This document shows, one piece after another, positions 4,164 to 63,689 of a stretch of DNA of 64,000 nt (positions are counted from its first letter, which is position 1; each line of letters starts with the position of its first letter). The translations under genes were made by a program, and so were the position numbers. The stretch is from Macrostomum lignano (Eukaryota). The notes under the pieces were generated by a model, which had not been told where the DNA came from, did not search any database, and worked only from the letters and a program-made list of their open reading frames with translations. The stretch spans positions 124,001 to 188,000 of the forward strand of contig NIVC01001205.1 of assembly GCA_002269645.1 (NCBI GenBank), in the 5' to 3' direction.

Positions 4164-4868
4164 ATGGCGCCACCCACTGAGTCAACTGTTGCACTCAAGC
4201 TGCCCACGTTTTGGGCCATGCAGCCACGCGCGTGTTTCATCCAGGCAGAGGCCCAGTTCCAGCTGCGCGGCATCACCCAGGACGACACCAAGTATCACCA
4301 CTTGGTCGCCTCGCTAGATTAACAAACCGCCGAGCGCCTGCTGGACGTTCTGGAAAGCCCTCCGAGCGAGGACAAATACGGCAAACTGAAAGGGCGCCTG
4401 CTCGGCACTTTCAGTCTCACCCGGCAGCAGCGAGCTAGCCGTTTGCTCAGCATGTCCGGCCTGGGAGATCGCCGGCCGTCCGAGATGATGGACGAGATGC
4501 TGGCCCTGCTTGGTGATCACCGGCCTTGCCTGCTCTTTGAGGAGCTGTTCCGCCAGCAGCTGCCCGTGGACATCCGGATGGCGCTCGCATCCGCCGACTT
4601 CGAAGACCCCCGGGCAGTCGCGCAGCTCGCCGACCAGCTCTGGGCCAGCCGGCCCCAGCCAGTGGCCGCTTCCGACCAGTTGGCAGGTCCGCCGGAGGTT
4701 TGCGCTGCGCGTCAGGCTGCGCGTCCCCGCACCACGTCGCCCCGGCCTGGGCACCGCGGCACCCGCGCCCAGGAGCTGTGCTACTTCCACCGCAAGTTCG
4801 GCGCGAAGGCTAGGCAATGCGAGCAGCCCTGCAGCTTTCCGGGAAACGGGCCGGCCGGCCGCCAGTGA
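4164..4868 (+). pseudogene. gag: gag of CsRn1-like element with one premature stop
   Basis: MAPPTESTVALKLPTFW...QAEAQFQLRGITQDDTKY, in-frame TAA at 4320-4322, continuing in frame to the CHCC knuckle CYFHRKFGAKARQCEQPC characteristic of this clade. Confidence 0.9.
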
Positions 4869-6604
4869 CCATCGCGGCGGCCGGCAACCTGCTGCTCATC
4901 CCCGACGTCCCATCCGGCCGGCGGTTCCTGCCATTCCTGGTGGACACAGGCGCCGAGGTAAGCATTTTCCCAGCCTCTGCAGATGATGCCCGCGCCCGTT
5001 CAACTGGCCCGCCGCTGTTCGCGAACGGCACCCGCATCCGAACCTTCGGCGGCCGCAGCATCACACTGGACGTCGGCCTGAAGACCTGCACCTGGCCATT
5101 CGTGTTGGCCGAGGTCTCCCGGCCGTTGATCGGCGCCGACTTCCTGCGCCACCACGGCCTGCTGGTGGACCTGCCCAACCGCCGCCTTCTGGACGCCGCC
5201 TCCCTGGCCAGTGTGCAATTGCTGGCTGGCTCCGGTTCTGCGCCTCAGCTCGCCGCCGCGGTTGCCAGGGACCCGTACAGCCGGCTGCTGGCGGAGTTCC
5301 CCAGCATCACGGAGCCCAGCTTCAGCAAAGCCACGCCGCGGCACGGCGTGGAGCAGTACATCCCGACGACGGGCCCGCCGGTGCACGCTAGAGCGCGCCG
5401 CCTGCCGCCCGACAAGCTGGCCGCGGCCAAGGAAGAGTTTCGCAACCTGGAGCAGCTCGGCATTGTGCGGCGGTCCAGCAGCCCCTGGTCCTCGCCGCTG
5501 CACATGGTGCCCAAGACTTCCGGCGATTGGCGGCCCTGCGGCGATTTCCGGCGGCTCAATGACGCGCGGTGCCCGACCGCTACCCGTGCCGCATATCCAG
5601 GATTTCTCAGCGCGCCTGAGCGGCTGCACAGTGTTCTCGAAGATCGACCTGGTGCGGGGCTACCACCAGATCCCGGTCGCGCAAACGGACATCCCGAAGA
5701 CCGCCGTCATTACACCGTTTGGGTTGTTTGAGTTCCTCCGCATGCCGTTCGGGTTGAAAAATGCGGCACAGGCCTTCCAGTGGTTAGTAGATTCGATCTG
5801 CCAGGACCTGCCGGCCGTCTTCGCGTACATCGACGATTTCCTGGTCGCCAGCAGCAGCCCCGAGCAACACGAGGAGCACCTGCGGAAGCTGTTCCAGCAC
5901 CTTGCCGACAACGGCCTGTTGCTCAACCCAGCCAAGTGCCAGTTTGGCCGCAGCGAGATCGATTTCCTCGGCCACAGGATCAGCGCTGCAAGCGCCATGC
6001 CGTTGCCGGACAAGGTCGACGCAGTCGCCAGGTTCGCGCCGCCCACGACGGTGAAGGGTCTCCAGGAGTTTGCCGGCATGGTGAACTTCTATCACCGCTT
6101 CGTGCCCGCGCAGCCCGGTTGCTGCGCCCGATCTACCAGGCCATGGCCGGCAAGGAGAAGCTGGTGCGGTGGACGCCGGAGCTGACCGAGGCCTTCGACA
6201 AGACCAAGCAGGCGCTGGCCGACGCGACCATGCTGGCGCACCCCAGGCCCGACGCGCCGCTGGCCCTCACCGTAGATGCTTCTGACACCGCCGTGGGCGC
6301 CGTCCTCGAGCAGCGTGTCGGCCCCGCCTGGCAGCCGCTCGCATTGTTCAGCCGGCAGTTGCGACCTGCGGAGGTTAAGTACAGTGCCTTCGACCGCGAG
6401 CTCCTGGCACTGTACCTAGCGGTCCGCCACTTCCGTTACCTCCTTGAGGGGCGCCACTTCACAGCCTACACGGATCACAAGCCGTTGGCCGCCGCCATGG
6501 CCAAGCTGTCCGACCCGTGGTCCGCTCGCAGCAGCGCCACCTGGCGTACGTGAGCGAATTCACCACGGACGTCCAGCACATCGCCGGTAAAAACAATCCT
6601 GTCC
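4847..6604 (+). pseudogene. pol: pol (protease-RT-RNase H) of CsRn1-like element, frameshifted and truncated
   Basis: FLVDTGAEVS (protease); PWSSPLHMVPK, FSKIDL, PFGLKNA, YIDD (RT); DASDTAVGAVL, YSAFDRELLA, YTDHKPL (RNase H). Frameshifts near 5570, 6110 and 6535. Confidence 0.92.
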
Positions 6605-7358: not shown

Positions 7359-11818
<4,460 letters not shown>

Positions 11819-15512: not shown

Positions 15513-18500
15513 TCGAAGTTATCAGTGAATTTGTACCACTTATATAATTCAACACTCACACCAAGTCAGGTAGAGTAAAAAGTCACGCGAAGCAGTTATG
15601 ACATAATCAATTTCTTAGGCAAGTCAGTACCAGTGTCTATGAAAGTTAACAATATGGTTACGTAATATAAATTCAGTACTGCACTATACTTTCACCCTCA
15701 AAGCTGTGACGCAATTCAATTGAGTGTCAAATTCAGCCAGTACACAGACGATAAATAAAGTGTATTGTGATGCAATCTATTTCAGAATCAGAATTCAACC
15801 AGTCAGTTTTTTCTCTAGCATTCTTACAATGCATTTCAGGTCGAAAGAGCTGCTTGACCTTTGCAAAAAATCATGTTTTTCGAATATTTAATCCCTTTAA
15901 CATTGAGCAATTTCTTAGCCAATATGCATGTACCGTCCCGGGAAAATTTCTGATCGAATGGTGCAAGTTTGAAGAAAATCGGTTGAGCCGTTCGGGAGAA
16001 AATCAATTACAAGCAAGCAACCAAGCATTTCATTTTTAGTATATTAGATTTCTCATCGGATAAGCTATCGGAAACTTTGATGTCGCACAGCAGAGTGTCA
16101 GAATGTATCGATGACCTCCTTTGGACGGTTGCGCAATCGGTCCGATCACATCCATGTAAAGTCTTCAAAAAACTTTGCAGACTGGAAAACTCTGCACTGG
16201 CACTTGCTGTTTTCGTCGTGACTTGCTCTCTAGGCAGGTTCGGCATTTGCTGACGTAGGTCTCAATGGCTCGGACTAAACCTGTTTGCCAGAATCTTTCG
16301 CGCACACGTTGGGCGGTCTTTCGCTGTCCTTGGTGTCCTGCTAAAGGCGAATTGTGGAGCTCGTTAAAAACTTCGTCGTCGAGTGCTTCCGGTAAGACAA
16401 TCTTCGGTGGAGTGTCTTTTTCCTTCATGTTGATCATGAGTATATCTCGCTCGAGGAATAGTAACTCGTAGTATTCTAGCAGATTCCGTTGCTCTCTGCT
16501 AAGTCGTAATCGATCGTCAAACGCTGGTTTCGGTTGATCCTCCTTGATCAACTTGTAAACGTAGCCAATAGCTGGGTCATCCTGTTGAGCTTTGATAAGC
16601 TTGTCGCGCGGCAATGGCGGATTCAGATGATCCGTAAGCAATGCTCGGCAGCGCGGCAGACTTTGAGAAGTTGCGAGCTGGGGAGATGCTTCAGCTGTAC
16701 GTACTCTGTCTTCCTCGTATGCAGACTTCGTCACCTCTGCATAGGAACGCCTCAGTTTCGGCGTAGGACGAAGGCGCGTCATGGCGCAAGACATATCGTC
16801 CACGTGTTGATAATGGGTGGTCGACTGCAGGCTCATGGAAGAGCAACGAGACGGCTCGACCTGCTGAGTCTGTCGGCTCATGGAAGAGCAGCGGGACTCT
16901 TCATCGGTAAATTTTCGACCGAGATCTGAGCAGTGGCGGTCGACTGGGAGGGCTGCTGGAGCGGTGGCCTCCGAATCTTCGTCCAAGTCAGTCTCCAAAC
17001 TCTGTAGGTAGACCTGATGGCTGTGGTTGGAGAGGGCTGAGGGTACAGTGGCCTCTTGAACTTCATCCAGGCTGGTCTCCTTGAAGTGACGGCGAGCGTG
17101 GGTGGCTGGGCACAGGGCTGCTGGTGCGGTGGCCTCTGCGTCTCCATCCAAGCTTACTGTTTCCTGGCGTTGGCGCGAGCAGTGGAGAACTCGGCAGAGG
17201 GCTGCTGGTGCGGTGGCCTCTGGTTCGTTGTCCAAGTCGGTCTCTGCCTCTGGATCGCGATTGTGGGTCTCGATTGAGAGGGCTGCTGGTGCGGTGGCCT
17301 CTGAATCGATGCCCGGATCAGTTTCCTTAATGCGGCGACACTCACGCTGAGTGGTGTCTCCTGTCTCCTCGCGGTGGCAAGCCAGGACAGCGTCGACGTC
17401 CTGGAGTACTCCGTAATCGCATTCTAACGGAGGCGTGTCCGGGCGTCTTGATAGCGCGTCGGCGTTGGTGTGGTCAGTACCCTTGCGATAGGAGATGGTA
17501 AACTTAAATTCGCTGATCCTCTGGACCCATCGACCTAGAAAATGCCTGTAGATTCAGTCTGACGTAACAGCCAGAGCAAGGCCTTATGGTCACTTCTTAC
17601 TTCAAACTTCTTTCCTATTAAGTATTCTAGAAAGTGTCGCATGGCATCGACAATAGCCAGTAGCTCCCGCTTGGTGACCGTGTAGCGAACTTCCGGGTCA
17701 CGGAGCTTTCGACTGAAAAATGCAATCGGTCGTTCTATTCCATCGGATTGTAGTTGTCCTAGACATGCACCGATTCGGGTGTCGGATGCATCGGTATCCA
17801 GGATAAACTTGACCTTCGGATCCTCATTGAACTCTGGGAGGGCGAGTACTTCAGTTGAGCATAGCTTGCTCTTCAGAGTCTAAAAGGCAGTCTGATGCTG
17901 CTGCGTCCAATGACGCTGGAATCCTTGCAGGTCCTTGAGTGTCAATGCGTGTAACGGGGCAGCAATGCCTGAGTAATCCTCGACGGACTTCTTGTAGTAA
18001 TTGGCTAGACCAAGAAAGCTTCGTAGTTTACGAAAAGTCCGAGGCATTGGCCAACTGCGTATCTGCTCAATCTTGTCTTCACTAGTTCGTAGGCCTTCCG
18101 GTGTAATCACGTGGCCTAGATAATGGAGCTCCTTCTTGAATAAATGGCATTTCTTCGGTTTTAGCTTCAAGTTGGCGGCTATAATTCGATTTAGGACTTA
18201 TCGGAGACGATCTAAGTGATCTTCGAATGTCACTGCGTGTACAACGATATCGTCCATGTAACCAAGAGCGGGCTGTGGTGCTATTCCATCAAGCAGTTGG
18301 TTGATACAACGCTGGAACGATCCGGGGCTGTCGGTGAGTCCCATTGGTAGCACCTTGAAGCAGAATTGTCCACGATCGAGCACGGAGAAGGCAGTGATGT
18401 CCTGGTCTTCCTCACGGAGAGGGATCTGGTAGAAGCCTTGTACCAGGTCGAGGCTTGAGTACCACTGCGCTCCTTTGAGTTTGGCGAAAGTTTCCTGAAT

Positions 18501-21097
18501 GTGCGGGATCGGGTACGGGTGCTTTAGCGTCACATCGTTGATCGCTCTGAAGTCGTGCACAATGCGAATCGTTCTGTCCTTCTTTGGTACTAGGATCATC
18601 GGCGAATTGTAACTGGAGTACGTTGGCCGAATGATGCCTTTCTTCAGCATATCGTCGAGCATCTGATCCAGTTGCGGTCGTAGATGCGGAAGTATCCGGC
18701 GAGGAAGAATCGCGATTGGCGTCGAGTCTTTGAGCACAATCTCATGAGTTACCAGGTGAGTCAATCCGTGGTCCAACGGAGTTAGGGAGAATGCCTTCTT
18801 GCATTCCTTGAGTAATTCTTGAACCTGGTTCCTCTGGTGGCTGTTCAGCTGGTCTCCAATGTCGACCTCATTGATCCAACTGTCAGTTGTTTCTTCTGTC
18901 GTTTTCACTCTACGGACTTCCGGCTCATTCGACTCGCTGAAGTACTCGAGGTCCTGGGTCTTGAGTGGCGTGGCTACTCCCAATAGCATGTTGCGACGCA
19001 AGCGAACCTGTGTCTGATGGGTTGAGTACTTCCATTACTCCTCGACCTTCTGTCATCGTATGCAGGACCGGGGCTGCGTCTAACTGGTGATGCTTCGCTC
19101 GCAGTCCTTATTTGAGCGGTTCGATAATCATCGGTGAACCGTAGTTCTGCTGATGACCTTCGGCTAGTTTAATGGCGACGAGGCAGGAACATTGAGGCGG
19201 CAGAGTGCATTTTTCAGCGACGTACACTCGGCGGGCCTTCAGTTCTCTCCTTGAATAGCGTACCGGAAGTCGGGTGCCTTGTCGGAATGTAAGCATTCCT
19301 TGCTGGAAGTCCAGTCCTTGGCAATGACTCCGCATAAAATCAATTCCTAAAAGATTTTCACAGTCTCCTTCGGCGACGAAGAATTCGGTTTCCGCGACAT
19401 AGTCCCCGAATTCGATTGATAGGATAACCTTAGCGGCGAGACTTAACTCAGTCCCGTCGTACATAGCGACTCGGTTAGGATAAGCAGGTGCGACTATACA
19501 ACGTAGTGAACGACGCCTAATGGCGGCCCAAGTGGACGCTCCGAGGAAGTTCTTCTGCTTCCGCTGTCTAGCAGAAAGGCGACCTCTCGTCGAGCCACTC
19601 GTCCTGTAATAAATGGATCGGCGTCACGCGCATGGACAGTATTTACAAAGGAGGTGTCCACGAAACCTCCATCCAACGTTTCCTCGTTTACTGACGACTC
19701 GGACGAGTCAGCTGCCGCGGCTGCGGGGCCATACTCTTCCGGGGTGTGTTCGGTGTCGGCTGCATAACCTGGGCTGGAGCTCGGGGGGCGTTGCCGTTTA
19801 CGTCCTCCGGCCGGCCGTTTCCCGTAAACTGCTGAGTTGATTGAGGTTTGTGCGGACAATCTCTCGCCTTGTGTCCTTCTTGATGACACTCGTAGCACGT
19901 GTAGTGCGGCGGTCGGTTCGCTTGACCGATCACTTGATTGGCTGTGACTTGCTGTGCCAATGTGTTGAGTAGATGCTGCTGCTGCTGCATCATTGCAGCT
20001 TGTTCAACGACTTTTTCCAACTTCGAGAGGGCGCTGTTGTTGGGCTCCTTTGAGGCTTGTCCCTCCCCGTCCAACATTCTGACCGGGGGCTCTTTCGAAC
20101 GATGAGCCAGGTCTTTGGCTAGTTCCATTCTCTTCAGTGCTCGCAAGGCTTCGCTGAGTGTCGTAGGTTGGATCCAGAAAAGTTTCTCGCGGCAGTCTGA
20201 TAACGTGCGGATCCCGCGCAGGAACTGGTCCATCAGTTCTTGCTCTAGATGGCGAGGCTCGAGCCAAGGGAAGGCTTGCTCTCCTAGCTCCTGCAGAGCA
20301 TCGGCGTAATCTTCCGTTGATTCGTTCCTGCGCTGGCTGCGGCCTCTGAATTCTTCTCGATATTCGTCTGGTCCAGAGAGTCGTGCAAATCTCTCTATTA
20401 GTCGTTGCTGAAGCTGTCGATAGCTGATGCGGTCGGGCAGCCTAATGCGAAGTACCGCGGCGTAGGCTGAATTTAAGTCTAAATTCGCCAGCAATTGGGC
20501 CTTTCTGTCGTCTTCATCCTGTAGATCTTCTGCCTCGCATCGCAGGTCGAAAGCCTTTAACCAAACGCGGATGTCCTGCAATGGCGTATAGCTCTTCATC
20601 TTGACTTGCTTCTTAGGCTGTAGATCGAGCTGACGTTGCATTGCCTGCAGCATCCTGCGGATCATGTCCGGGTTGGTGTCGCGTCCGAGGTTCTTGAGTC
20701 CTGATAATAGATCTTCTTCCTCTTCTCCTGAGTCATCCCTAAATTTAAATCCTCAACCGCATGGTACAGGTTTACCTGCAGCAGCTGCGGCGGAGTTTCC
20801 GTTGTCCTGACGCGTGTGCTGTTGATCACCGATGAAATCTTCTCGATCGCTGTCATGAGACATCTTGGTGGTGACCTAGTCGTTGTAGGCGTGACTGATG
20901 ACGTTGCCGAAAGGGTGATAGTTGAGTAACGTTGACGTCGATTCGGTGACGTTCTCCTGCTTGCTTGTTGTATCCCGAATCTCGAATCTCGTGTCTCGGA
21001 TCTCGAATCCTCTGTCTCGAATCTCGAATGTCGTATCCCGAATCTCGTATCCCAAATCTCGAATCTCACCGCTGTGCCACCATTGAAGTACTCCTTT

Positions 21098-22062: not shown

Positions 22063-22629
22063 AATATAACATAGTATAGGCCTAAGTAAGTAGACATAGA
22101 TAGTCTTCTTTAGTTAGGTAGGCCTAACCTTAGATAGCCTAGCCACTACAATTGATAAATTTATGATTTAACCAAATTAACCAACAAGCTGATAATAGGT
22201 AACAAGTCATGTCATTAATTTATAAATTTCATTCAGCCTACTATACGCGGCGCGGGTAGTTTAACGTGCAGTGAAACTTTCCTAACTTAGCTTTGTTCAA
22301 TACAAAGCTGCTTCTATGAGCATAACAAATAAAATATAAAAATGGTTAACTTCGTAATTTTTGTACTTTGTGCGCTTCAATTATAGTACAGTAGCTTCAT
22401 TATTTTTTTCTTGATAGTTTTCTTTACAAAATTGCTAAATTCAGTCGCCAAACCACACCACACTAAAATTGCAATTCCTGCAATCTAATGCTAAACATTT
22501 TCTACTTTTAGTAATGTAGACTGCTCCTTACGATAAATATAAAAATTGCAATAGTCTTGCGCAATCGTAATGCACTTCTTTCAATCACTTCATAAGAAAA
22601 TTACAATTGTCATAATTTAGTCAATCTAA

Positions 22630-23209
22630 TTGCAATTTCTCCCAATTTTCACGCAATCTGGGTGACTAGAGTGAAGCTGCGCCCGTTTGAAAAATTTGAT
22701 TTAAAGCAGACCAAACAGAAGCTACAGACCAGAAATCGGTTTTGCAAACTATTCCTAAGCCGACCAACAATGCTAAAGACAATTTATTCAAACGCTAAAA
22801 TCTAACTTTATCCAGCAGGAAAACTAACTAGAATGGCTGTAAATCAAATTCTTCGATAGTCTCAGTTTTACGATTTATCAACGACACTATTAATTGTGTA
22901 GATTTTGATTCAGTAAAAATTCAGAGCAGTACCTATGCCGGCTTTATTGGTCATCTTTGGCCAAAATTCGGTTTCTCTAGTCTAAAAAGATATGCAGGCT
23001 ACTATTCGAATTATCTGGTTGGATACGACGCAGAAAATTTCCCACAAGCAGTTTCTGTTAGATCAGCATCAGAACCAAGGCTTTTTTGTAACATATTTTT
23101 TTCGAAAAAGTTTGGTATTATGGGCGTTCAAAACACTCATGAATTGAATAATATTCTTAACCATGTCAAGGATTTTTTATCTCTGTTAATAACTAAACTT
23201 AACAAGTAA
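22630..23209 (+). pseudogene. TBP-fold (TATA-binding protein-like) gene with two nonsense codons and one frameshift
   Basis: Hand translation. Repeat 1: PNFHAIWVTRVKL..EKFDLKQTKQKL..RNRFCKLFLSRPTMLKTIYSNAKI*LYPAGK. Repeat 2: VDFDSVKIQSSTYAG...GYDAENFPQAV...RLFCNIFFSKKFGIMGVQNTHELNNILNHVKDFL. Compare TBP KLDLKTIA..KRFAAV..ALIFSSGK and FLDFKIQN..YEPELFPGL..LLIFVSGKVVLTG. Stops at 22803 and 22857, frameshift near 22870. Confidence 0.7.
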
Positions 23210-23405
23210 ACAATTGCTGTCTAATCGCAGTTGCGATGCATTATTTTACAAACATTTTGTCTTGTTTTTTCATTTATTTACCAATTGTTTTCTAATAGTA
23301 AACGTGTCAGCTATACCTATAACTCATTTTTCTTACAGCCGCAAATGACAAACCGGATCATCTATTAGTATTATGCTCGATACGCTCGTTGAGTGCACTA
23401 GCTAG

Positions 23406-24157
23406 GTGCACAAAATGCCGCGTGCACAATGCCAAATCTACAGAAAAAAGTTCAGTAATCAAGCCGAGCTGCATGCTCACTCGCATTGTGATTGTTTTTC
23501 GCCGCAACGGTTACTGACCGGATCGCTGCAAAATCTGATCGGAAAACCACCAGATGTGTGGTCCATCGCTTTTCGCGAGTCAGCTTATCTTGGTCGGGTA
23601 AATTTTGTCGAATTTACTCCCACTCTTAAACAACAAGACAACAGCTCTGGCGAGTTGATTGCGTCTTTAAGAGAACAATATTTTAAATATTAGAAAAAAT
23701 TGGTTCACGCAGTTTATTAATAAGACTCGGCTTTCACTTGAAAGTGAAACTATTTCGACCGAAAGCAGCAGCAGACGACTACAATGGCTCGAACAGCGAA
23801 GAGATCATTTCGGTCTATTTGAATACCAACATTGCGACAATATCATTTGATGAGACGATTGCAAACAGTGACATGCTGTTATCTCCCGAGGCCTACAATG
23901 ACTGGTTCGCACGCGTTATTAATCAGTTGTTAATAAAAATTGACAATTTTCAATCTCGAGGTAGTAATTGGCAATATAGAGCAATCAAGCAGCTAGACTT
24001 GATGCTCTGCGTTTATCGCAAAAGCCATGCAAGTAAACTGTCAACAAATACGTCCCACGGTGGTGTGGGGGCGAGCGGCGGCAGTGGTGGTGGTGGTGGC
24101 GGCGGCGGTGGCGGCGGCAGCGGTGGTGGCGGTGGCGGCGGCGGCGGCGGCGGCAGC

Positions 24158-24189
<32 letters not shown>

Positions 24190-25353
24190 GCGCGGGGAGT
24201 CCGGTCCTGTCCGATTAAACAGCGAGTGTTTAAAGTTCCAGTCTCAATCGGGCGCAAAGCTGGAGCAGTACTGCTTCTAAAGCCGCACAGAGCAAATCAG
24301 TACGACTGTTTTCGCTACTCAATATTGGCGAGTATATTTCATCCTTGTGTGCAATATGCGAAAAGGAAAGACATTTATGTGCAATGGATGAGAGAATTTA
24401 ATTTTGGTCGACATGCTAATGGGCCAGCTCGCCATTCAAGTAGATCGTACAAACTGCCGACGCAATCCGAGAGTTAGTTTACGAGTATTTGTGTGGGATC
24501 AAGAGACCAAGACGAGCACATTATTTTACTCGCACAAAAGCAAATATGATGGCGATCGTTATTTTGCAAGCTGCCTGTTTGTGCCGCGGTATGACGATTT
24601 TGAATTTGGTCATTTTTTACCAATTCGCAATTTGAACCGGTACTTATTGAGCAAGCGAGGAAAACAGCGACGATATTGTCCGGAGTGCGCGGCTTCGTTT
24701 CCTTGCTCAACTTCGTGGGACTATATTCTCAAGGAGCATTGATGTGAAGGTGGTAACGTGTCATCATCGTCAGCTTCTAATATTGAATGGAGTTCGGATT
24801 TTGTGCCTCAATTCCGCGAGATTCGCCATCAATCGCAAGAAGAAATGCCGAAACCAGAAAACGCAATTTTGAAATTTAAATCAGACGAGGCAAAACTGCC
24901 TTCGTTGTATGTCTTGTACGCAGACATGGAATGTCTATGTGCATCTGCAACTAATGAAGCAAATGTAAAGAAGACTTGTAATTCGAAGCCGCTTGAAGTC
25001 CACGTACCAATTTGTTTGGCCTATCGTCTGATAACTTGCCAAGGTTTGCAATTGACACAAGACTGGATGCAGCAGTTTGAATGAACGACAAAAAACCTTG
25101 TGGAGTAATTTACTCGCAAACACATGGTGAGAATTGTGTTCGACTGTTTTTACGCAAACTTCAAACCATTGCCAGCGAGATTTGTCTGCATGCTCAGACT
25201 GAGACGTTTACTCCCTTGCTACATGAATATCTCAATATTAAATCCAACAAGAAGCTTCAGCAGACTTGTCAACTATGCAAGCGAGTATTTGACAAGACTG
25301 AGAAAACTGTGCTGGACCATTGTATCATTTTGGAGGGGTTTTTAGGGGTATAG
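23406..25353 (+). pseudogene. 5' part of Polinton/Maverick-type protein-primed DNA polymerase B (Zn finger, GSGW-type domain, ExoI, Endonuclease VII insert), decayed and truncated
   Basis: C2H2-like finger; F..RGSNW..I..L.L; DCFRYSILA; GHFLPIRNLNRY..YCPECAASF; LYADMEC (ExoI, cf. YADFE); HVPICL; GENCVRLFLRKL; CQLCKRVF..VLDHC..GFLG (EndoVII-like). Several frameshifts; polymerase palm absent. Confidence 0.8.
24058..24190 (+). repeat. (GGC/GGT)n trinucleotide expansion, in frame as poly-Gly/Ser
   Basis: About 44 codons of Gly with interspersed Ser inside the pPolB fragment. Confidence 0.95.
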
Positions 25354-25551: not shown

Positions 25552-26841
25552 TCAAGTCACGTTCGAAATATGTACGTGGATTTGGCAGTTTTTGAATGTG
25601 CCCGATATAGCTGTAGCCAACGTTTGCATCTCCATTCCAGCCTTGGTGGCTGTAGATGATTGCTGTCGCACATCGGTCTGAGCACTGGTCTCCGGTAGCA
25701 ACGCATCAGCCGGTACCTCTGAGCCGGGCGTCGGCAGACGCACCTCTTCGTGCGGGCTCTCTATCCTTGCGCTCTTTTCCTCGCCGATGGAACTGATCCT
25801 TACAGACAGCCCAGCCATCTTTCCGTCACGCTTTCTGCTGTTCCGAATGTACCTTTGTGCAGCTGTTTCAGTTTTGTGTCCCGTTACAGCGCTGATATCC
25901 CTCAGGGACACTCCAGCTGCACTCAACTCGGTTGCCAGGGTGACTCTTAGACAGTGGCCAGTATAAATCTTGCTCAAATTAGCCGCTTTGGAGATGCCAC
26001 TCATCATGTTCCCAAGAGTGTTGACGCCTACAACCTGCTTAGCAAAATACCACGACTCTGCAAAGCCGCGTACTCGGGGACGTATGAACACAACGGAGCT
26101 TGACACTCCCTCTTTTCTGTTGGCCTCTTCGATCTTGCTCATGTAAAGCTCAACACACTCGTAGGGGCATCATATTTCAAAGGTTTCGACAATCACACTC
26201 TGCTTCCTATCTTCTGAGGTCCGCGCTTCTAAACTTCCTCGAACAGTCTTGGTTTCCATTGATGCCAGCCTGAATTCGCGTCGCCCATTGATGTTGCATC
26301 TCTCAATAGAATCCGTAGTTAGCTTACGGAACCATTCGCGTCCACGCAAGCCAAACTGCAAGGCTAATACATAGTAGACATCCTGCTGCAAAATGGTCGG
26401 GCTACTTCGATCGAAGTAGCGGCGCAGCTTTTCTAGATCCTTTGTCTCCAAGGCGCAGAACTGTCTGACGGTGCCGCCTGATCTGATGCACATGGCGGCT
26501 GTAGCCTTCAATTGCATGTTGGCCTTTGCAAAGCGCGGATCCTCGATAATATTAACGTCACGGACACGCAGCAAATAGCGGAAAACACCAGCTCGATTGG
26601 TAATCAACGAAGCAGGGGCATAGAAGCCATCGTCAATTTTACAAACAAAAGCATAGAAGAATCGCAAGCCAGTGACTAACTGTTCGATATCGGCTGTATT
26701 CAGATCGCAGGCGTAGTTCTTGCTTGAAAGCACCTCGTTGAACTTACGAAGTGCCCACTTTTCTTGCAACAGAGCTGACTTTTTTATTAGAGGCAGGGGG
26801 GTTGTGAGCACCCTGGCGCACTTTAAGCGACATAGGCACAC
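25552..26841 (-). pseudogene. Crypton-type (DUF3504/KCTD1-ZMYM-like) tyrosine recombinase with one in-frame stop
   Basis: KWALRKF, LRFFY..CKIDDGFY.PASL..RAG..RYL, F.KAN, GLRGRE (R), YTGHCLR (HxxR), TGHK (H), QRY (Y). The two ORF-track pieces are in one frame, separated only by TGA at 26172-26170. The 5' start is unresolved. Confidence 0.88.
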
Positions 26842-31692: not shown

Positions 31693-34600
31693 TCAAGTGA
31701 GCACACCGCTGGCAGCCAGTCTAGTTCCAGCCGGCGGCAGCATCATTGTAGTTCTGGCCCGGTGCAGCAGCGGCCTGCCGCCACCGCCGCCACTTCCAGA
31801 CACCAGAGGAGGCAGCTCGTTTGCCAGAGTGACGCTGAGGTTTGCAGCAATCACCTCAGCAGTCGAGGCCTTAGCCGAGTTTGGCTTTACTCGACGAAGC
31901 AGGCCGCGAATTGAGTCGCGAGTTCGCTTTAGCTGATAGGCTCTGATTCGGGCGCACACCTGATCGCTAAAATATCCGCAGGTGAGCCATTCGTCGAAAT
32001 CGGTTATGTGATCAAAGGCCGCTAAGCCGTTCTGCGCTCGGCATTTTGTGTCGGCTCCGCGTTCGATCAGCAAACTGGCTGAGAGCTGGTTGCCGCTTCT
32101 ATAGTGTGAAAAGCGAAAATTTTCAACTTCACTTGAATTTCCCTGCGAGACATTTCCGCTTTTGAATCCCTAGTCAGCCTCATTCAGTCAACTGATTGTG
32201 CTGCTATAGTCATACTCTCAAACTTAAGGTTTATCGTCAATCTTCACTCGTTTTTAGTGTTATGTGAACTAACTGAATAAACATCCAAAGTTAACGCAAC
32301 TTTGTATTGTACCGCAACTATATATTATATACCTTAATGAATTGCGGTTGCAGACGTACGAAATATTGATAATGACTCACAATGCAACCTCTAAACGTGT
32401 TCTGCGCATGCTTAAGAATTAAGAAATCTCTAAAATGACACCTCTATAAAGTTCATTTGATTCAATAATTCCCAGTTTAAACAAAAATAAAAAATCTGTT
32501 CAATTGTCTCAGACCTCATTTCGGACCAAGCTAGCAGAAATGAGTATGATGGAAAGAAAGGCCTGTGCCTTCGAACTTTATTTCTAAGATACTGCAACTT
32601 TCAGATCTTGCTTCAAATGTCGGTGCGTCGCTCACCTGCATGCGTAGAACAGAGGCGTCGCCATGTCTCCGGCTCGCGCGTCCGGGCAGCCTCCCTTGTC
32701 CAACAGCAGCAGCATCATGTCCGAGCCCTCCGATAGTCCGGCAGCCAAGTGCAAGGCGGTGGCCCCGTCAGGTGGAAACTGAGCGCTAGGATCGGCGCCG
32801 CACTTGTCTAGCAAGAATCCCAGAGTGAGGAAGCGCCTAGCGATCTGCAGCTCCCCGGACACCAGCTTGTACAGCATGCGCGAAGCTTCATCTTGTTTCA
32901 GATCGAATCCTTTGCCAAGCAGCCAGTCGGCGCATTCGACAAATCCACCAGTCAGAGACAGGCAGACCAGGCTAGGAGGATGAGTTGATGACTCCTGACC
33001 GAGGCTGCGCAGTATGGCGCCACCGCCGACTGAAGCGTCGTGCGTCAGCAGCAGATTGATCACGTCGGTGCGGCCTTGCAGAGCAGCACAGTGAATGGGC
33101 ATCAGGTCCTGTTCGAGTGGCGCCGATTGGAATGCGTGCTTAAGGGTACGAACAATTAGTTGCTTTAGAAACTATTTTGAGAAGTATGGGTAAAGAGAGA
33201 TTTAAATATTGCTATAATATAGGAGTGAGGAGAGGGAAGCAGGTAAATTACTGTCTTTCTAATCACATCATTTACAAAACAGAACATGTTTTCTCGCTAA
33301 TTTTGCTCACTGTTTTTCTACAAATACGAGCAATACAAAGTAAATTTAAACTAACTAATCATGTAAAAGCATAAAATTCATTAGCTCTTCACAATGAAAA
33401 AAAATGCCGAATTTTAAATTTTTCAAATTAAAAATAGCAGTGAATTCGAGATGTTGCCTGAGTACCACTCATTCGCATTGAGGATGACACGAACAGAAGT
33501 GAGATGGAAACTGCTGCGGAGTGCAGACGGCAGTTTATCTAAATCTATGAGCTTTTTAATAAAATGTCGAATCACCAGCGAGAACTTAGCTTTTGTATAC
33601 TTTTGAATAATTTTAGCGTTCAAGTGAAAATATCTAGGCTATAGCAAGCGATGGTTGTGCACGCTGCAAGAGAAATGGCTCGCGCGATTTTCAACAAGAG
33701 CGAGAGACATGGTTCTGCTTTTTTAGCACGTTGGCCTTGACGTTCTTCAACTTCGTCCGTTTTTTACAATAGGCGCTAAATTTAACGCTATGGTTCTTCA
33801 ATCGAACGCAAACTGCTATATCTTAGACTGTGTACAGAATTAAATGCACCTACGCTTGAAATTGGATCAACCTCAATTCCCTACCGCAGAACGATTGAAT
33901 TAGGTTAAGTTAAGAACGTAGAAGGATCAATGTTTTATGAGAGGGAAACCCTGAATTTTTGTCCACGTCGTTTGTCTATTTCTAACTGCCTATCAGGAAT
34001 TAGTGGATAGATTGCCCTGGGGCTGTAAATTGACATTGGCAATGATTGATGGAAAGACTTAGGATATTGCGGATATAAAGGTGTATGTAAGTGAAGAGGT
34101 ACATGGTACTATACTGGGAGGGGATGCTTATGGTATACGAGGTAAAAGGGACTTTAATGGGTTCGTAGCGGTGTACGGATTAGGGCTTGAAAATTCCAGA
34201 TTGTACGATGTCAAGTAAGCTATGCAAAATGTTAAGGCAAAATAGTTTGTGTCGAAAATGCTGCCAGTGCAATAAGACAAAGAGCAATATTCAGAGTTGA
34301 CAGCAATACAGTGCAAATTCAAACAGTTTGTGCCGTGATTGTAAAAAAATCTAAATGAAGAGTTTCTCTGTTCAAAGGAAGGAGCAAATTAAGCAATAGT
34401 TGATTTTTTTTATCTTGAATATTGTCTGAAATGAAATTTACCTTTTGAAGAAAAATACTGAAAATAAAATGACGCATGTGTTTAAACTTAGTAAGGAAAT
34501 AATTTTATTCTCTGATTAAAACCGATCCTAAACTTATTAATATTAAAATCTAAGTCATAAGTTTGCTTCAATCCCGTTCACAAAACGATGTCGTCGATTA

Positions 34601-37600
34601 CAGATATGTACTTTCATATTAAACCGACGTTCAGCCGATATATGAAGTCGTTATCCGTCAATCCGTCAACATTGAATTGCTGTACGAGAAAGTTTATTAA
34701 CCCGTGCAATCCTAGGCGATAAATCGAATCGATATAAATCGATATAATCGAAAAAAACTTTACTCTTAAGACGCCTGGAATAGTCACAACTGTTGGTTTC
34801 TTATCGAACAATGGGCCGTATGCAGAAAGCTTAGTCCAGACTAGCTAGTCCGGACTTAGGTAGTTCAGTCTATAGTCTATGGTCCAGCTACCCTAGTTCT
34901 GTCTATAGTAGACCGGTCTAACTTTGCGTTTCTGCATACCAAATCCAAGTCCAAACTAGCTTTTCAAGACCGGACTACCCTAGACAGAGTTTCTGCATAC
35001 GGCCCATTAGCTCGTAAGTGTTTACGTTAAAAGCAGAAAACGCCCGTCCCGAATAATTAGAAAATTTAGTTGATCTGTAGCAAGTATAATATCAACTGGC
35101 AGTGAATTGCAGTCGTACGATATTTAATTCTTTCACTCTAATTTAGTTGCAGCTCACACTAAAACTTGGGGACAAAACAGGTTAGTTATTAATTACTTTG
35201 TAGTAGGCTTGAGGCAGCCGAAAATCAAGGCGACCCGCATCCAGTGAGGGGACAAGCAGGTATGCTCATTCTGCTAGTGATATCTAGTGATATTGAGACG
35301 ATTTCGAGTGTAAATTGGGTCAGCTGGACCCTTGCTTACCTTGTCATTCTTGCTGGTGGGGCTAGCATCGTTGTCCAGTAGGAACCGGATAAGATCCAGT
35401 TGGGATTGTTTGCCGTCTTCACCGAAGCATTTGACGTGCAGCGCTTGGTTGCCTTCGCGATCGCGCAGCTGCACATCGGCCCCGGCCTCCAGCAGGATTC
35501 TAGCGCCGAGCACGCTGCCCGCGCGATGCAGGACGCCCGCGCCCTTGTAGTCTCGAATTGAGACGTCAATTTTGAGCTTGAGAAGTCTACGGATTAGCAG
35601 TAGATGGTCGAAGTAGGCGGCCGTGTGAAGCAGAGTGCTGCCGTTTAGACACCTACAGAGGACCGAGAAAGATCCGGATTTGTATTGTATATACATGTAT
35701 AGTAGTGCTTCTGAAGGTTCTGACTGTTATCAACAAATATGTTTGACACTGGCGGCTCAGACTGAAGACTGAATAATATTCACCTGCTCTGGATGCTAAC
35801 AAGCTCGTGTCGTTTAGTCACGTGATCTTCAATCATGTCGGAAAGGTGCTGCAGCTGGCCCGACACGACCAGCGGCACGGTGGTGGAGTAGTACTGGTAG
35901 TGCCGCATTAGATTACGGCGAAGCTCATCGCTTTTTGAAGCCTCCAATGCTGTTAGCTTCTGGATGTTCTTGGCGTGGATGTCGCAGCCCCATTCAATCA
36001 GAAGCTGGTGGAAGCGCGTGGGATAGGACGATATGGAGGAATTCGGCACTGAGGCGACAGTTAATAATTGAATCTATTGTAAATTTAACTATCAATTTTG
36101 ATACACCAAAAGGCTTTCCATGACCACCAACAGGACAAGTGTAACCTGACACCTTGACCATCGCTGAAGCCCTACATTTCCCTTGACAAACGACAGTGTC
36201 TCCTGACTGCCAACATTCCCAACTCACCCAGTCTCTTCTAACACTTCACATTCCCCCCCGAGACTCGATCCAGTCAACCCCTGACAACCCACCAGTCTTC
36301 CACCCCAACAGCCTACCTGGCAGACTCGCCGGTTCCCCGACTCCACGGCCAGGAACAATGGTGTGCACTTGTGCACATTCCTGGCATCAATGTCGGCAAA
36401 GTTCTGCAGCAGCTGCAGAGCCACCCGCAACTGCCCGTAGCGGCAGGCGTAGTGCAGCGCGGTATTGAGGCTGCCCGGCTCTCTATAGTTGATGAAGTCC
36501 GGGACAAAGCTAAAAAAGGTGATCAGCTTTTGAATGGCGTGGTAGTTGCCCTCTTTGGCGTGCTTCAGCAGACCGTTCTGCCAGATCTCCAGGGTGCCGG
36601 GAAACACCTGGTAGAGCACGGACTCGCCAACTCCAATTAGACTGTTTTTGCTCTGGCATTCCACGTATATGTCGAATTGGGGATGCTCGGCGGGGTCAAG
36701 CAGGATAGAGTCTCTGCTGGGCTGGCGAAGCATCTGGCGGACGGTCACTGGGATGGGAATCGTGGGAGATCGGTCTAGACTTCCATAGAGTTCGTAATTG
36801 CAATTGCAAGCATGTAAGTGTTCAATTTTCTCCCTTCTGTTTGCGCTTAATAACCTATAATTACAAATTCAAGCTTAACATGTAATAATAATCATTCTAG
36901 TTTGACTGTATCAAATTTATAAGACAATAGCACAAATTTAACGTTAAATTCATAAACTTTCAACAAACATTTCACCTTCAGTCTTCCTGGTAAAATCGTC
37001 GTAGAATTCGCCAGTTTTCTTGGACTGCAGCACAATGCGCCTGTTCTCGAGAATCAGCTCCGGGTCAAGCAGTTTGCAAAAAGCAGCTCCGTTGGACAGA
37101 CTCTGCAAATAAACGAACGAAGTGCAAATCAGCCTACTGTCTGAGTAGAAATGTGTGAATAGTGATCTCAAAAAGTTACCAAGTTGATCATCAGTGAAAT
37201 GCACATCTGATTGAGCGTCATGTCCCTGGGCGCTTGCACAATTTCAAAGCGATCCTTCAGTTTGTCGCGAATTTTTCCCTGCATCTGCAAGCGTAATTAA
37301 TGCGTCGAGATTATTTGATTGGCATTAATAGGGGAGACAAAAATGCAGACACCCGGCTATCACGAAATTGAGCTCTATTAAATTTCAATAAAAGTCTATC
37401 GTGTTGAGGTTTCCATGTAGTAACCTTCCGTACCTTATGCAGTAAACATTTCATTTTAGAAATTTCCAGCTAATCAATAAGTCAAGTTCTGTATTCATAA
37501 GTCAATTAACGGTACAGAGACCCACAACTGAAATTTACTTGAGTTGATGAACTTGTAAGCGCTTACGAGTATCATGCCAAACTATACTTGCCTCACTTGG

Positions 37601-41921: not shown

Positions 41922-57548
<15,627 letters not shown>

Positions 57549-58410: not shown

Positions 58411-58838
58411 ATGAAATTTAGTCGACTCAAAAGGTGCTCTTACCCCTCCAATGAAATGAAACGAATCGAGTCAGTTCTATTTTCAGCTTAATCGTTTTAA
58501 TCACCCAGAAAACATGACAAACTCCATAATATGAATCATTTACATCGATTACGCTTTTAGTACCCTCTTAGACAGTGCATTGTCACCCTTATAGTACCGT
58601 GATATACGTACATACCGCTTAGTTGCAAGCATATAAATCCCATAAATAGTACATACAGTGATGTAGTTGAGGTTTAGTAAATTGCAATTACTACAATGTT
58701 CCTTATTAAACGCCATAGGAGCCCACGTGAACCCTAGGGGCCATTATAGGCTCCAGTTCAATTGTCCCAGTAAACACACGGGAGAGACACCACTTATCTA
58801 CAGAGGCAGCTGAATTGCGCAGAATATAGTTATTGATA

Positions 58839-63649
<4,811 letters not shown>

Positions 63650-63689
63650 GTAAGTCGATAAGTTACTTTTATCGTATAAAATCTCCCTG

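Follow-up and report, generated by a model that had tools for sequence, protein, structure and literature searches.

A TBP-like gene in Polintons of Macrostomum lignano: a candidate late-promoter factor

Does a Polinton in the genome of Macrostomum lignano carry a TBP gene of its own, and what might such a gene do for the element? The question is raised by a locus within a stretch of 64,000 nucleotides (assembly GCA_002269645.1, contig NIVC01001205.1, positions 124,001 to 188,000, forward strand), referred to here as the window. An initial annotation had described a broken, two-repeat frame with the fold of TBP directly upstream of a Polinton-type polymerase (pPolB).

A decayed Polinton fragment and its natural copies

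The locus is an orphan internal fragment of a young Polinton of family A (Table 1). The fragment is decayed and lacks terminal repeats, upstream exons and structural genes; across 2,693 alignment columns it is 92% identical to its counterparts at C84 and C2373. A twin of the insertion, including its flank, is found at G000:C255 (99.85% identity over 3,375 nt). The stretch 22150-22690 occurs at two places in the genome only, the window and C255; this identifies the window fragment as an orphan internal piece of an element.

Homology with the natural copy opens at 22672, so the start proposed at 22630 lies in unique flank. Within the TBP-like exon, the acceptor and the first ten codons are gone, and a premature stop is present at 22803. 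The second stop that had been proposed (22857) falls in a shifted frame. The single frameshift placed at about 22870 does exist as a single-base frameshift near 22832; a further single-base indel near 23178 had been missed. By three-frame translation, the 5' TBP-like piece lies in one frame and the 3' piece of 125 codons, which retains D-x-E-x-F-P and the fourth Phe, lies in another. The window copy of TBP is dead. The co-orientation with pPolB, about 200 bp downstream, is borne out: an ATG homologous to the pPolB start stands 205 nt past the TBP stop. The pPolB pieces correspond to approximately residues 1-639 of a natural frame of 1,415 codons (DNA_pol_B_2, E 4e-20). In many family-A copies, frames shift at or near the poly-glycine tract of this region.

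Other mobile elements and open frames are found in the window. A broken retrotransposon is the upstream neighbour of the fragment, and a tyrosine recombinase frame lies directly downstream. The 882-codon frame listed with the ankyrin-repeat frames carries a Mab-21 C-terminal domain (E 1e-11; cGAS-like family).

Table 1. Features of the window, by position
Feature	Position	Strand	Basis or content
LTR-type RT/RNase H, another	4814-6553	+	
LINE-like element	7359-10594	-	endonuclease, RT, RNase H
Ty3/gypsy-type retrotransposon, broken	16165-20752	-	gag, zinc knuckle, RT, RNase H, integrase zinc domain
Flank outside element (unique)	22630-22671	.	alignment to natural copy; start in initial annotation falls here
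Internal fragment of family-A Polinton	22672-25323	+	
Broken TBP-like exon	22672-23209	+	96% identity to unbroken natural copy
Open 125-codon piece: end of repeat 1 and whole repeat 2	22832-23209	+	three-frame translation
pPolB N-terminal part, five frame pieces	23415-25323	+	tblastn 75-93%
GGC/GGT-rich tract (poly-glycine run, pPolB N-terminal region)	24059-24204		
Tyrosine recombinase frame	25552-26169	-	Phage_integrase, E 8e-10
Ankyrin-repeat frames and one 882-codon frame	32632-36868 / 58830-59726 / 61013-63661	- / + / +	
443-codon frame	44218-45549	-	DUF6944, E 3e-10

The family-A element at C84 is 19.6 kb long, with all genes on one strand. Between the terminal repeats the order is exon 1, ORF-A, TBP, pPolB, dUTPase, PLA2-like, ATPase, minor-capsid-like, pX-like, a conserved ORF, integrase, a small ORF, major-capsid-like and protease. 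The terminal repeats are about 108 bp in family A and end in AGTAGT..ACTACT; ends of the AGTAGT type have been described for Mavericks (PMC8097293). A 6-bp target duplication is present in six of nine two-ended copies (C593, C889, C2529, C209, C114 and C96) and absent from the other three (C84, C362 and C297). The left flank of the C2373 copy (121652-121657) and the right flank of the C84 copy (1079527-1079532) share a 6-bp word. The C84 copy is 99.65% identical to the C2373 copy and its own flanks differ, possibly through chimeric assembly or recombination.

Support for gene identity varies across the element. The integrase has an rve match (E 5e-8) plus a chromodomain. ATPase and protease matches in family A are weak (Pox_A32, E 0.046; Peptidase_C5, E 0.11); a Walker A motif is visible in the ATPase sequence, and proteases of relatives pass the cut-off (Peptidase_C5, 22.6 bits; Peptidase_C48, 21.3 bits). 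The capsid-like proteins match no Pfam or PHROGs family, and the capsid profile matches adenovirus hexon at E 0.027. We take the names ATPase, protease and capsid in family A from weak matches, gene order and characteristic motifs. A segment of 3.16 kb inside pPolB is absent from three of the five family-A copies compared, and the same skip is seen in two sequencing runs.

A search of the M. lignano genome with the 3' piece gives 75 matches among 81 candidates: two at 100% (the window and its C255 twin), another 28 at 95-96%, and the remainder in groups that reach down to 27%. Among the 30 best loci, 26 have an unbroken frame of 185 codons, two are broken near the start and two are the window and its twin. 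pPolB starts 205-228 nt behind the TBP stop in 30/30 copies. Intact copies linked to pPolB, for which a search had been proposed, are therefore present, in an element that also has an integrase gene, putative ATPase and protease genes and capsid-like genes. Related families (TBP identity 36-46%) keep the order ORF-A, TBP, (deoxynucleoside kinase), pPolB. At C362:549871-551289 (-) and C297:261439-262845 (-), the TBP domain and the deoxynucleoside kinase share one open frame; elsewhere among the families the kinase overlaps TBP or comes after it in another frame.

A divergent TBP fold, its conservation and its distribution

Two unbroken natural copies of family A score 31.0 and 31.2 bits against PF00352 (cut-off 22.9). 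Other families score 31.6 and 24.3 bits in two cases, and two more give no match. Broken pieces from the window, including 22832-23206, match no Pfam family (E 0.05); this 3' piece matches archaeal TBP in the PDB (E 0.005) and TBP clusters in the Atlas (0.93-0.94). An AlphaFold model built on eight natural rows (pLDDT 89, pTM 0.62) has two strand-helix repeats. In Foldseek, the first 39 rows listed are all TBP chains (best E 6e-8, TM 0.46). In VIA, 38 TBP entries reach Z 10.4-12.6, against 8.0 for the entry ranked after them; the best (Z 12.6) aligns 159 residues at rmsd 7.9, within a range of 7-8 A. Since Z is high and rmsd is 7-8 A, each lobe fits TBP singly and the inter-lobe angle is not fixed by the model; the lobe arrangement modelled from this eight-row alignment differs from that of TBP. 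In a viral library, giant-virus TBP-like proteins are the top matches. A two-repeat TBP-fold frame is thus present at the site, as judged by the profile and structure matches of its natural unbroken copies.

In canonical TBP, E186 and E188 form an acidic C-terminal stirrup that contacts TFIIB, and the basic patch of helix 2 is contacted by Mot1, NC2, TFIIA and TAF1. The Polinton protein shares with cellular TBP/TRF and with giant-virus and mirusvirus TBP-like proteins the two-repeat fold, the C-terminal E-x-F-P and the fourth Phe. It differs from them in several respects: identity is approximately 20% (24% over 127 residues to host TBP), the first intercalating Phe is lost, and the second is replaced by Tyr. 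The initial annotation had read the four Phe positions as RF, IY, NFP and IFF. Alignment to host TBP gives P (an R-P motif, no aromatic), Y, F and F, so the first two readings were wrong. F99 is among the changed positions, and the central Asn residues N69 and N159 are replaced by L/Q and S/T. E188, F190, P191 and F207 are kept, and E186 is kept as D; the corresponding D130 and E132 are invariant in 8/8 rows of alignment A1. Basic helix 2 is shortened and mostly non-basic in clade I. The protein thus has the TFIIB-side acidic stirrup of a canonical TBP, and lacks the set of four Phe and the two Asn. Residue numbers are those of yeast TBP, in part from Table 1 of PMC12529657.

Substitution patterns point to selection on the protein. 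dN/dS is approximately 0.17 between C889 and C2529 (pS 0.60, pN 0.18). Subfamilies of family A, compared over 6 synonymous and 3 replacement changes, give 0.15, and other unsaturated between-family pairs give 0.17-0.34; one close pair with few changes gives 0.54. pN is lower than pS in 20/20 between-family clade-I pairs. Judged by these ratios, purifying selection acts on the TBP-like gene, with synonymous sites near saturation.

Searching 1.84 billion representatives with a profile gives 127 matches, of which four (P0002-P0005) have E < 1e-30 and are unnamed. Quick trees (LG model) were built with 131 rows, including 120 of the 127 matches after a length filter, and with 44 rows. Clade I joins the four closest relatives (three in the 44-row tree) among 'RP-type' environmental proteins, and is placed apart from eukaryotic TBP in both. 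AU tests reject clade I with host TBP (p-AU 1e-5), weakly reject clade I with clade II (0.029), and do not reject clade II with host TBP (0.28). Because branches are long and the model is LG, only the rejection of clade I with host TBP is firm. On this evidence, the clade-I TBP is not a host retrocopy. Given the pPolB linkage, purifying selection and lack of grouping with host TBP, neither of the contrary outcomes that had been envisaged (a protein without a TBP match, or unlinked recent retrocopies of host TBP) was found, and the proposal that this Polinton lineage encodes a highly divergent TBP of its own is supported.

A word-based protein search with a single TBP protein gave no match, and the same search with A2 gave 5 unnamed matches. 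Viral contigs held no relatives for A1, P0006, the clade-II TBP or two capsid queries; with A5 they gave 4 weak TBP loci, which lack Polinton genes. A metagenome scan with A1 gave no match.

The gene extends beyond clade I. PF00352 gives 150 scored matches of 330 candidates in the M. lignano genome; host TBP and a TRF-like gene are found at three places each, and the rest are multi-copy. Twelve multi-copy loci were mapped. Ten are accompanied by genes of a second Polinton lineage and C38 by some of these genes, and C860 is a lone fragment. The TBP gene of lineage II stands alone, starts at an ATG of its own and adjoins structural genes. Seven of seven further loci, chosen by capsid similarity (29-33%), have a TBP-like frame and add lineages III and IV; each of the four Polinton lineages sampled from this genome thus has TBP-like genes.

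Searching with 12 aligned RP-type database proteins leads to 51 metagenome loci, of which 30 have at least one Polinton core gene and 21 have at least two. Among the 19 metagenome contigs of at least 4 kb, 15 have two or more core genes and one has six, including pPolB. The metagenome TBP-like gene is stand-alone with its own ATG, and 4/4 proteins tested pass Pfam TBP.

Several features of these lineages were recorded alongside. Lineage II loci are G000:C114:460183-476982 (L146, L126, L127), C96, C130, C84:667696-679831 and C529. Their TBP overlaps an upstream ORF, pPolB is on the opposite strand, and a PC4-like gene (PF02229, 31.8 bits) stands behind a canonical TATA box. Lineage III loci are L159:20-7621, L162, L165, L171 and L174 (capsid 29-31% alike); a TTGCAG acceptor precedes the TBP-like frame, and TATAAAT precedes structural genes. 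No pPolB-sized frame was found in the 20-30 kb listed around the lineage III copies. In L201, a metagenome Polinton, TBP adjoins a PLA2-like gene, and TATAAA stands before 11/12 genes (3.9 expected), often as TATAAACA.

Predicted splicing and promoter motifs

The initial annotation had noted an absence of introns. This holds inside the domain; at its 5' end the frame has no ATG before codon 44, which lies within repeat 1, and begins right after a splice acceptor. A pyrimidine tract and a YAG acceptor (phase 0) stand directly before the homologous Arg codon 1 at 10/12 loci, in families 36-46% alike, and the other two loci are broken at the acceptor; the background of acceptor-like sites is 0.16-0.32% of positions. 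In 6/6 ORF-A frames there is a single phase-0 GTRAGY donor; the peptide at this site is homologous between frames, and 42-50 codons separate it from the stop. The distance from ORF-A donor to TBP acceptor is 341-353 nt in family A (motif starts). Upstream, an exon 1 of about 100 codons is present in every family examined. The TBP frame is predicted to be the last exon, fused to ORF-A (about 332 + 185 residues). In lineage III, an acceptor precedes the TBP frame in 2/2 copies, with a matching consensus donor in one of the two.

The joint between exon 1 and ORF-A (GT..AG, in frame) is seen in two of four runs, from two studies. The joint between ORF-A and TBP is absent from the joints listed in the four runs. 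No run that contains the sequence is catalogued as RNA; the four used are only surmised to be RNA, and their contigs lose rare forms. Contigs of X6 and X1 run from the intron into the TBP exon, and those of X7 and X14 run through the donor. As the joint is unseen and contigs cross both sites, the fusion stays a prediction. A word-based search found no fused form among longer proteins, which is weak evidence.

Other gene structures were considered. Translation from Met44 would drop strands 1-2 and helix 1, and was rejected: pN is lower than pS in 10/10 pairs for codons 1-43, which are thus under selection. A second phase-0 donor in family-A exon 1 was set aside as it is missing from other families. 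A search for a conserved acceptor ahead of pPolB gave no consistent site. In the left accessory region of family A (L068:404-491), runs X6 and X7 skip 86 nt between CT..AC ends, as for an intron on the minus strand.

ORF-A resembles giant-virus clusters, one of which has DUF2738 on 10% of its members (0.93). DUF2738 is presumably a single-strand-binding family, and ORF-A is possibly a single-strand DNA-binding protein. The model of the ORF-A domain has pLDDT 51, no fold match above Z 3.0 and no PDB or PHROGs match. Comparison of ORF-A with the upstream ORF of lineage III gives no significant match (probability 0.6%).

A canonical or near-canonical TATA box lies 54-102 nt upstream of exon 1 in 5/5 clade-I subfamilies. 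In the family-A element at C84, all 8 plus-strand TATAAG sites fall within the structural block, 50-230 nt ahead of an ORF start in each case, and none occurs in the first 12 kb. TATAAG lies 20-250 nt before structural-block genes in 7/10, 6/10, 5/10, 5/9 and 3/8 cases; protein-preserving shuffles give null means of 0.7-1.1, and 0, 0, 0, 1 and 16 of 1000 shuffles reach these counts. The sites fall outside coding sequence or, from one family to the next, in differing codon phases. TATAAG was first chosen by eye, before the de novo test.

In a pooled test of all hexamers, TATAAG is top in clade I (23/39 genes; 3.9 expected). The corresponding words are CTTAAG in lineage II (8/18 genes; 1.1), TATAAA in lineage III (12/18; 1.5) and ATGCAA in five metagenome loci (16/41; 3.1). 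Each has a family-wise p of 0.005 (200 shuffles), with pooled elements being kin. Words of the other groups are unenriched in each group tested; between clades I and II, TATAAG counts are 23 and 0 and TTAAGA counts are 0 and 11. CTTAAGA also precedes lineage II's own TBP gene. When four clade-I elements are tested singly, TATAAG ranks first in one and third in another; in the remaining two it is not among the top three. No hexamer reaches significance in lineage IV or in four metagenome loci when each is taken alone. The comparison covers TBP-bearing Polintons only.

The lineage III motif TATAAAT[AG] is a canonical TATA box, readable by host TBP. The metagenome group motif TATGCAAA is far from a TATA box; to our knowledge, host TBP would not bind it.

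Candidate functions and known systems

We favour, as somewhat the more probable account, a role for the Polinton TBP as the element's own late-promoter factor, similar to herpesviral ORF24; the Polinton protein would bind TATAAG and be made as the spliced C-terminal domain of an early protein. Host TBP and Pol II would begin the early transcript at the canonical TATA box before exon 1. Splicing would give either the ORF-A protein or the ORF-A part joined to the TBP domain, and this domain would read TATAAG(C/T). In TBP, it is the C-terminal repeat whose Pro constrains the first TATA position (PMC12529657), so the C-terminal repeat faces the 5' half. In the Polinton protein this repeat, with both Phe and the Pro kept, would read the 5' TATA half; the N-terminal repeat, with one Phe lost, would lie over the 3' half, where the motif deviates. 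The kept acidic stirrup would recruit host TFIIB and Pol II, giving an early-to-late cascade in which virion genes are late. The broader claim, of an overlooked and widespread TBP gene in invertebrate-type Polintons whose lineage-specific TBP variants, each paired with its own TATA variant (TATAAGC, CTTAAGA, TATAAAT or TATGCAAA), run such a cascade with host Pol II, here through a spliced fusion, is evenly balanced.

The motifs might instead be ordinary weak TATA boxes for host TBP, with the Polinton TBP acting as a decoy or modulator, whether through binding to host TFIIB, TAFs, Mot1 or NC2 or through repression of the element's early promoter, and not reading late promoters itself. The canonical form of the lineage III motif, the TATA-like shape of all motifs, and the change of F99, N69 and N159 with TFIIB-side acids kept are consistent with this. 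It is nevertheless unlikely: the motifs vary by lineage inside one host genome, hence under one host TBP; TATGCAAA departs strongly from a TATA box; and a clade-I helix-2 patch that is mostly gone makes a poor sponge. The initial annotation had offered both redirection and decoying of host initiation. Redirection appears to fit better, given the retained acidic residues that contact TFIIB and the lineage-specific TATA variant ahead of the structural genes.

A role in replication or integration, where the protein fused to an SSB-like partner binds single-stranded or terminal DNA during protein-primed replication, is distinctly improbable. The gene does sit in a replication unit, with ORF-A on one side and pPolB on the other, and in other families deoxynucleoside kinase is a neighbour; the resemblance of ORF-A to DUF2738-bearing clusters agrees with such a role, as does the preference of the Phe-less Giardia TBP for single-stranded DNA (PMC12209930). 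However, the clade II and metagenome TBP genes are stand-alone and adjoin structural genes, the TFIIB-side acids are kept, and the lineage-specific motifs would be left unexplained. That the gene is a captured host TBP retrocopy or a functionless passenger is scarcely credible, even with the window copy broken and intronless inside the domain, and with clade II and host TBP not separated by the AU test. Low identity to host TBP, the same position in all clade-I families and relatives in metagenome Polintons speak against it; for clade I, selection and the AU test refute it.

Like Polintons/Mavericks (adintoviruses), the elements measure 15-21 kb, have (AGT)2 at the ends of their terminal inverted repeats and have a 6-bp target duplication. 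They also share pPolB, a chromodomain integrase, a putative A32-like ATPase, a putative adenain-like protease, and capsid-like, PLA2-like and adenovirus-pX-like ORFs. What sets them apart from described Polintons is a TBP-like gene under selection, for which splicing to the gene before it is predicted, together with an upstream motif that differs by lineage. The view that TBP was undescribed in Polintons was nearly right: the Fig. 5 legend of Starrett et al. 2021 (PMC8502044; preprint 10.1101/697771) defines a TBP label on such an element. The one supplement of that paper searched has no TBP match. The accessible text of vertebrate and nematode Polinton surveys (PMC8097293, PMC10748475) has neither 'TATA' nor 'transcription factor', and in the literature outside subscription papers and Repbase, TBP was found with Polintons only in Starrett et al. 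A widespread Polinton TBP, its predicted spliced fusion and the lineage-matched motifs appear to be new; the precedent in the literature covered is one legend, in passing.

The herpesvirus comparison concerns a working principle rather than membership. KSHV ORF24 reads TATT late promoters (PMC12529657). Both systems have a TBP-fold domain in a larger protein (here a predicted one), and early genes on host-type promoters with late genes behind a short TATA variant, although the timing in Polintons is inferred. ORF24 of beta- and gammaherpesviruses has all four Phe, lacks the TFIIB acids, binds Pol II directly and has five partner proteins (PMC12529657); the Polinton TBP keeps the acids and has lost the first Phe.

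If the broader claim is true, the Polinton system would be a one-protein version of the herpesvirus late-transcription system. This bears on how Polintons time their capsid genes without an RNA polymerase of their own. Polinton virion formation is still debated; a TBP-like factor with a matching motif before structural genes is a testable switch and argues for a true viral cycle. Together, motif and gene provide a simple marker for late promoters in many unannotated Polintons. Such elements add more than 100 TBP-domain matches to this genome and can distort counts of TBP paralogues. Natural pairs of TBP and TATA variants would show how TBP specificity is rewired.
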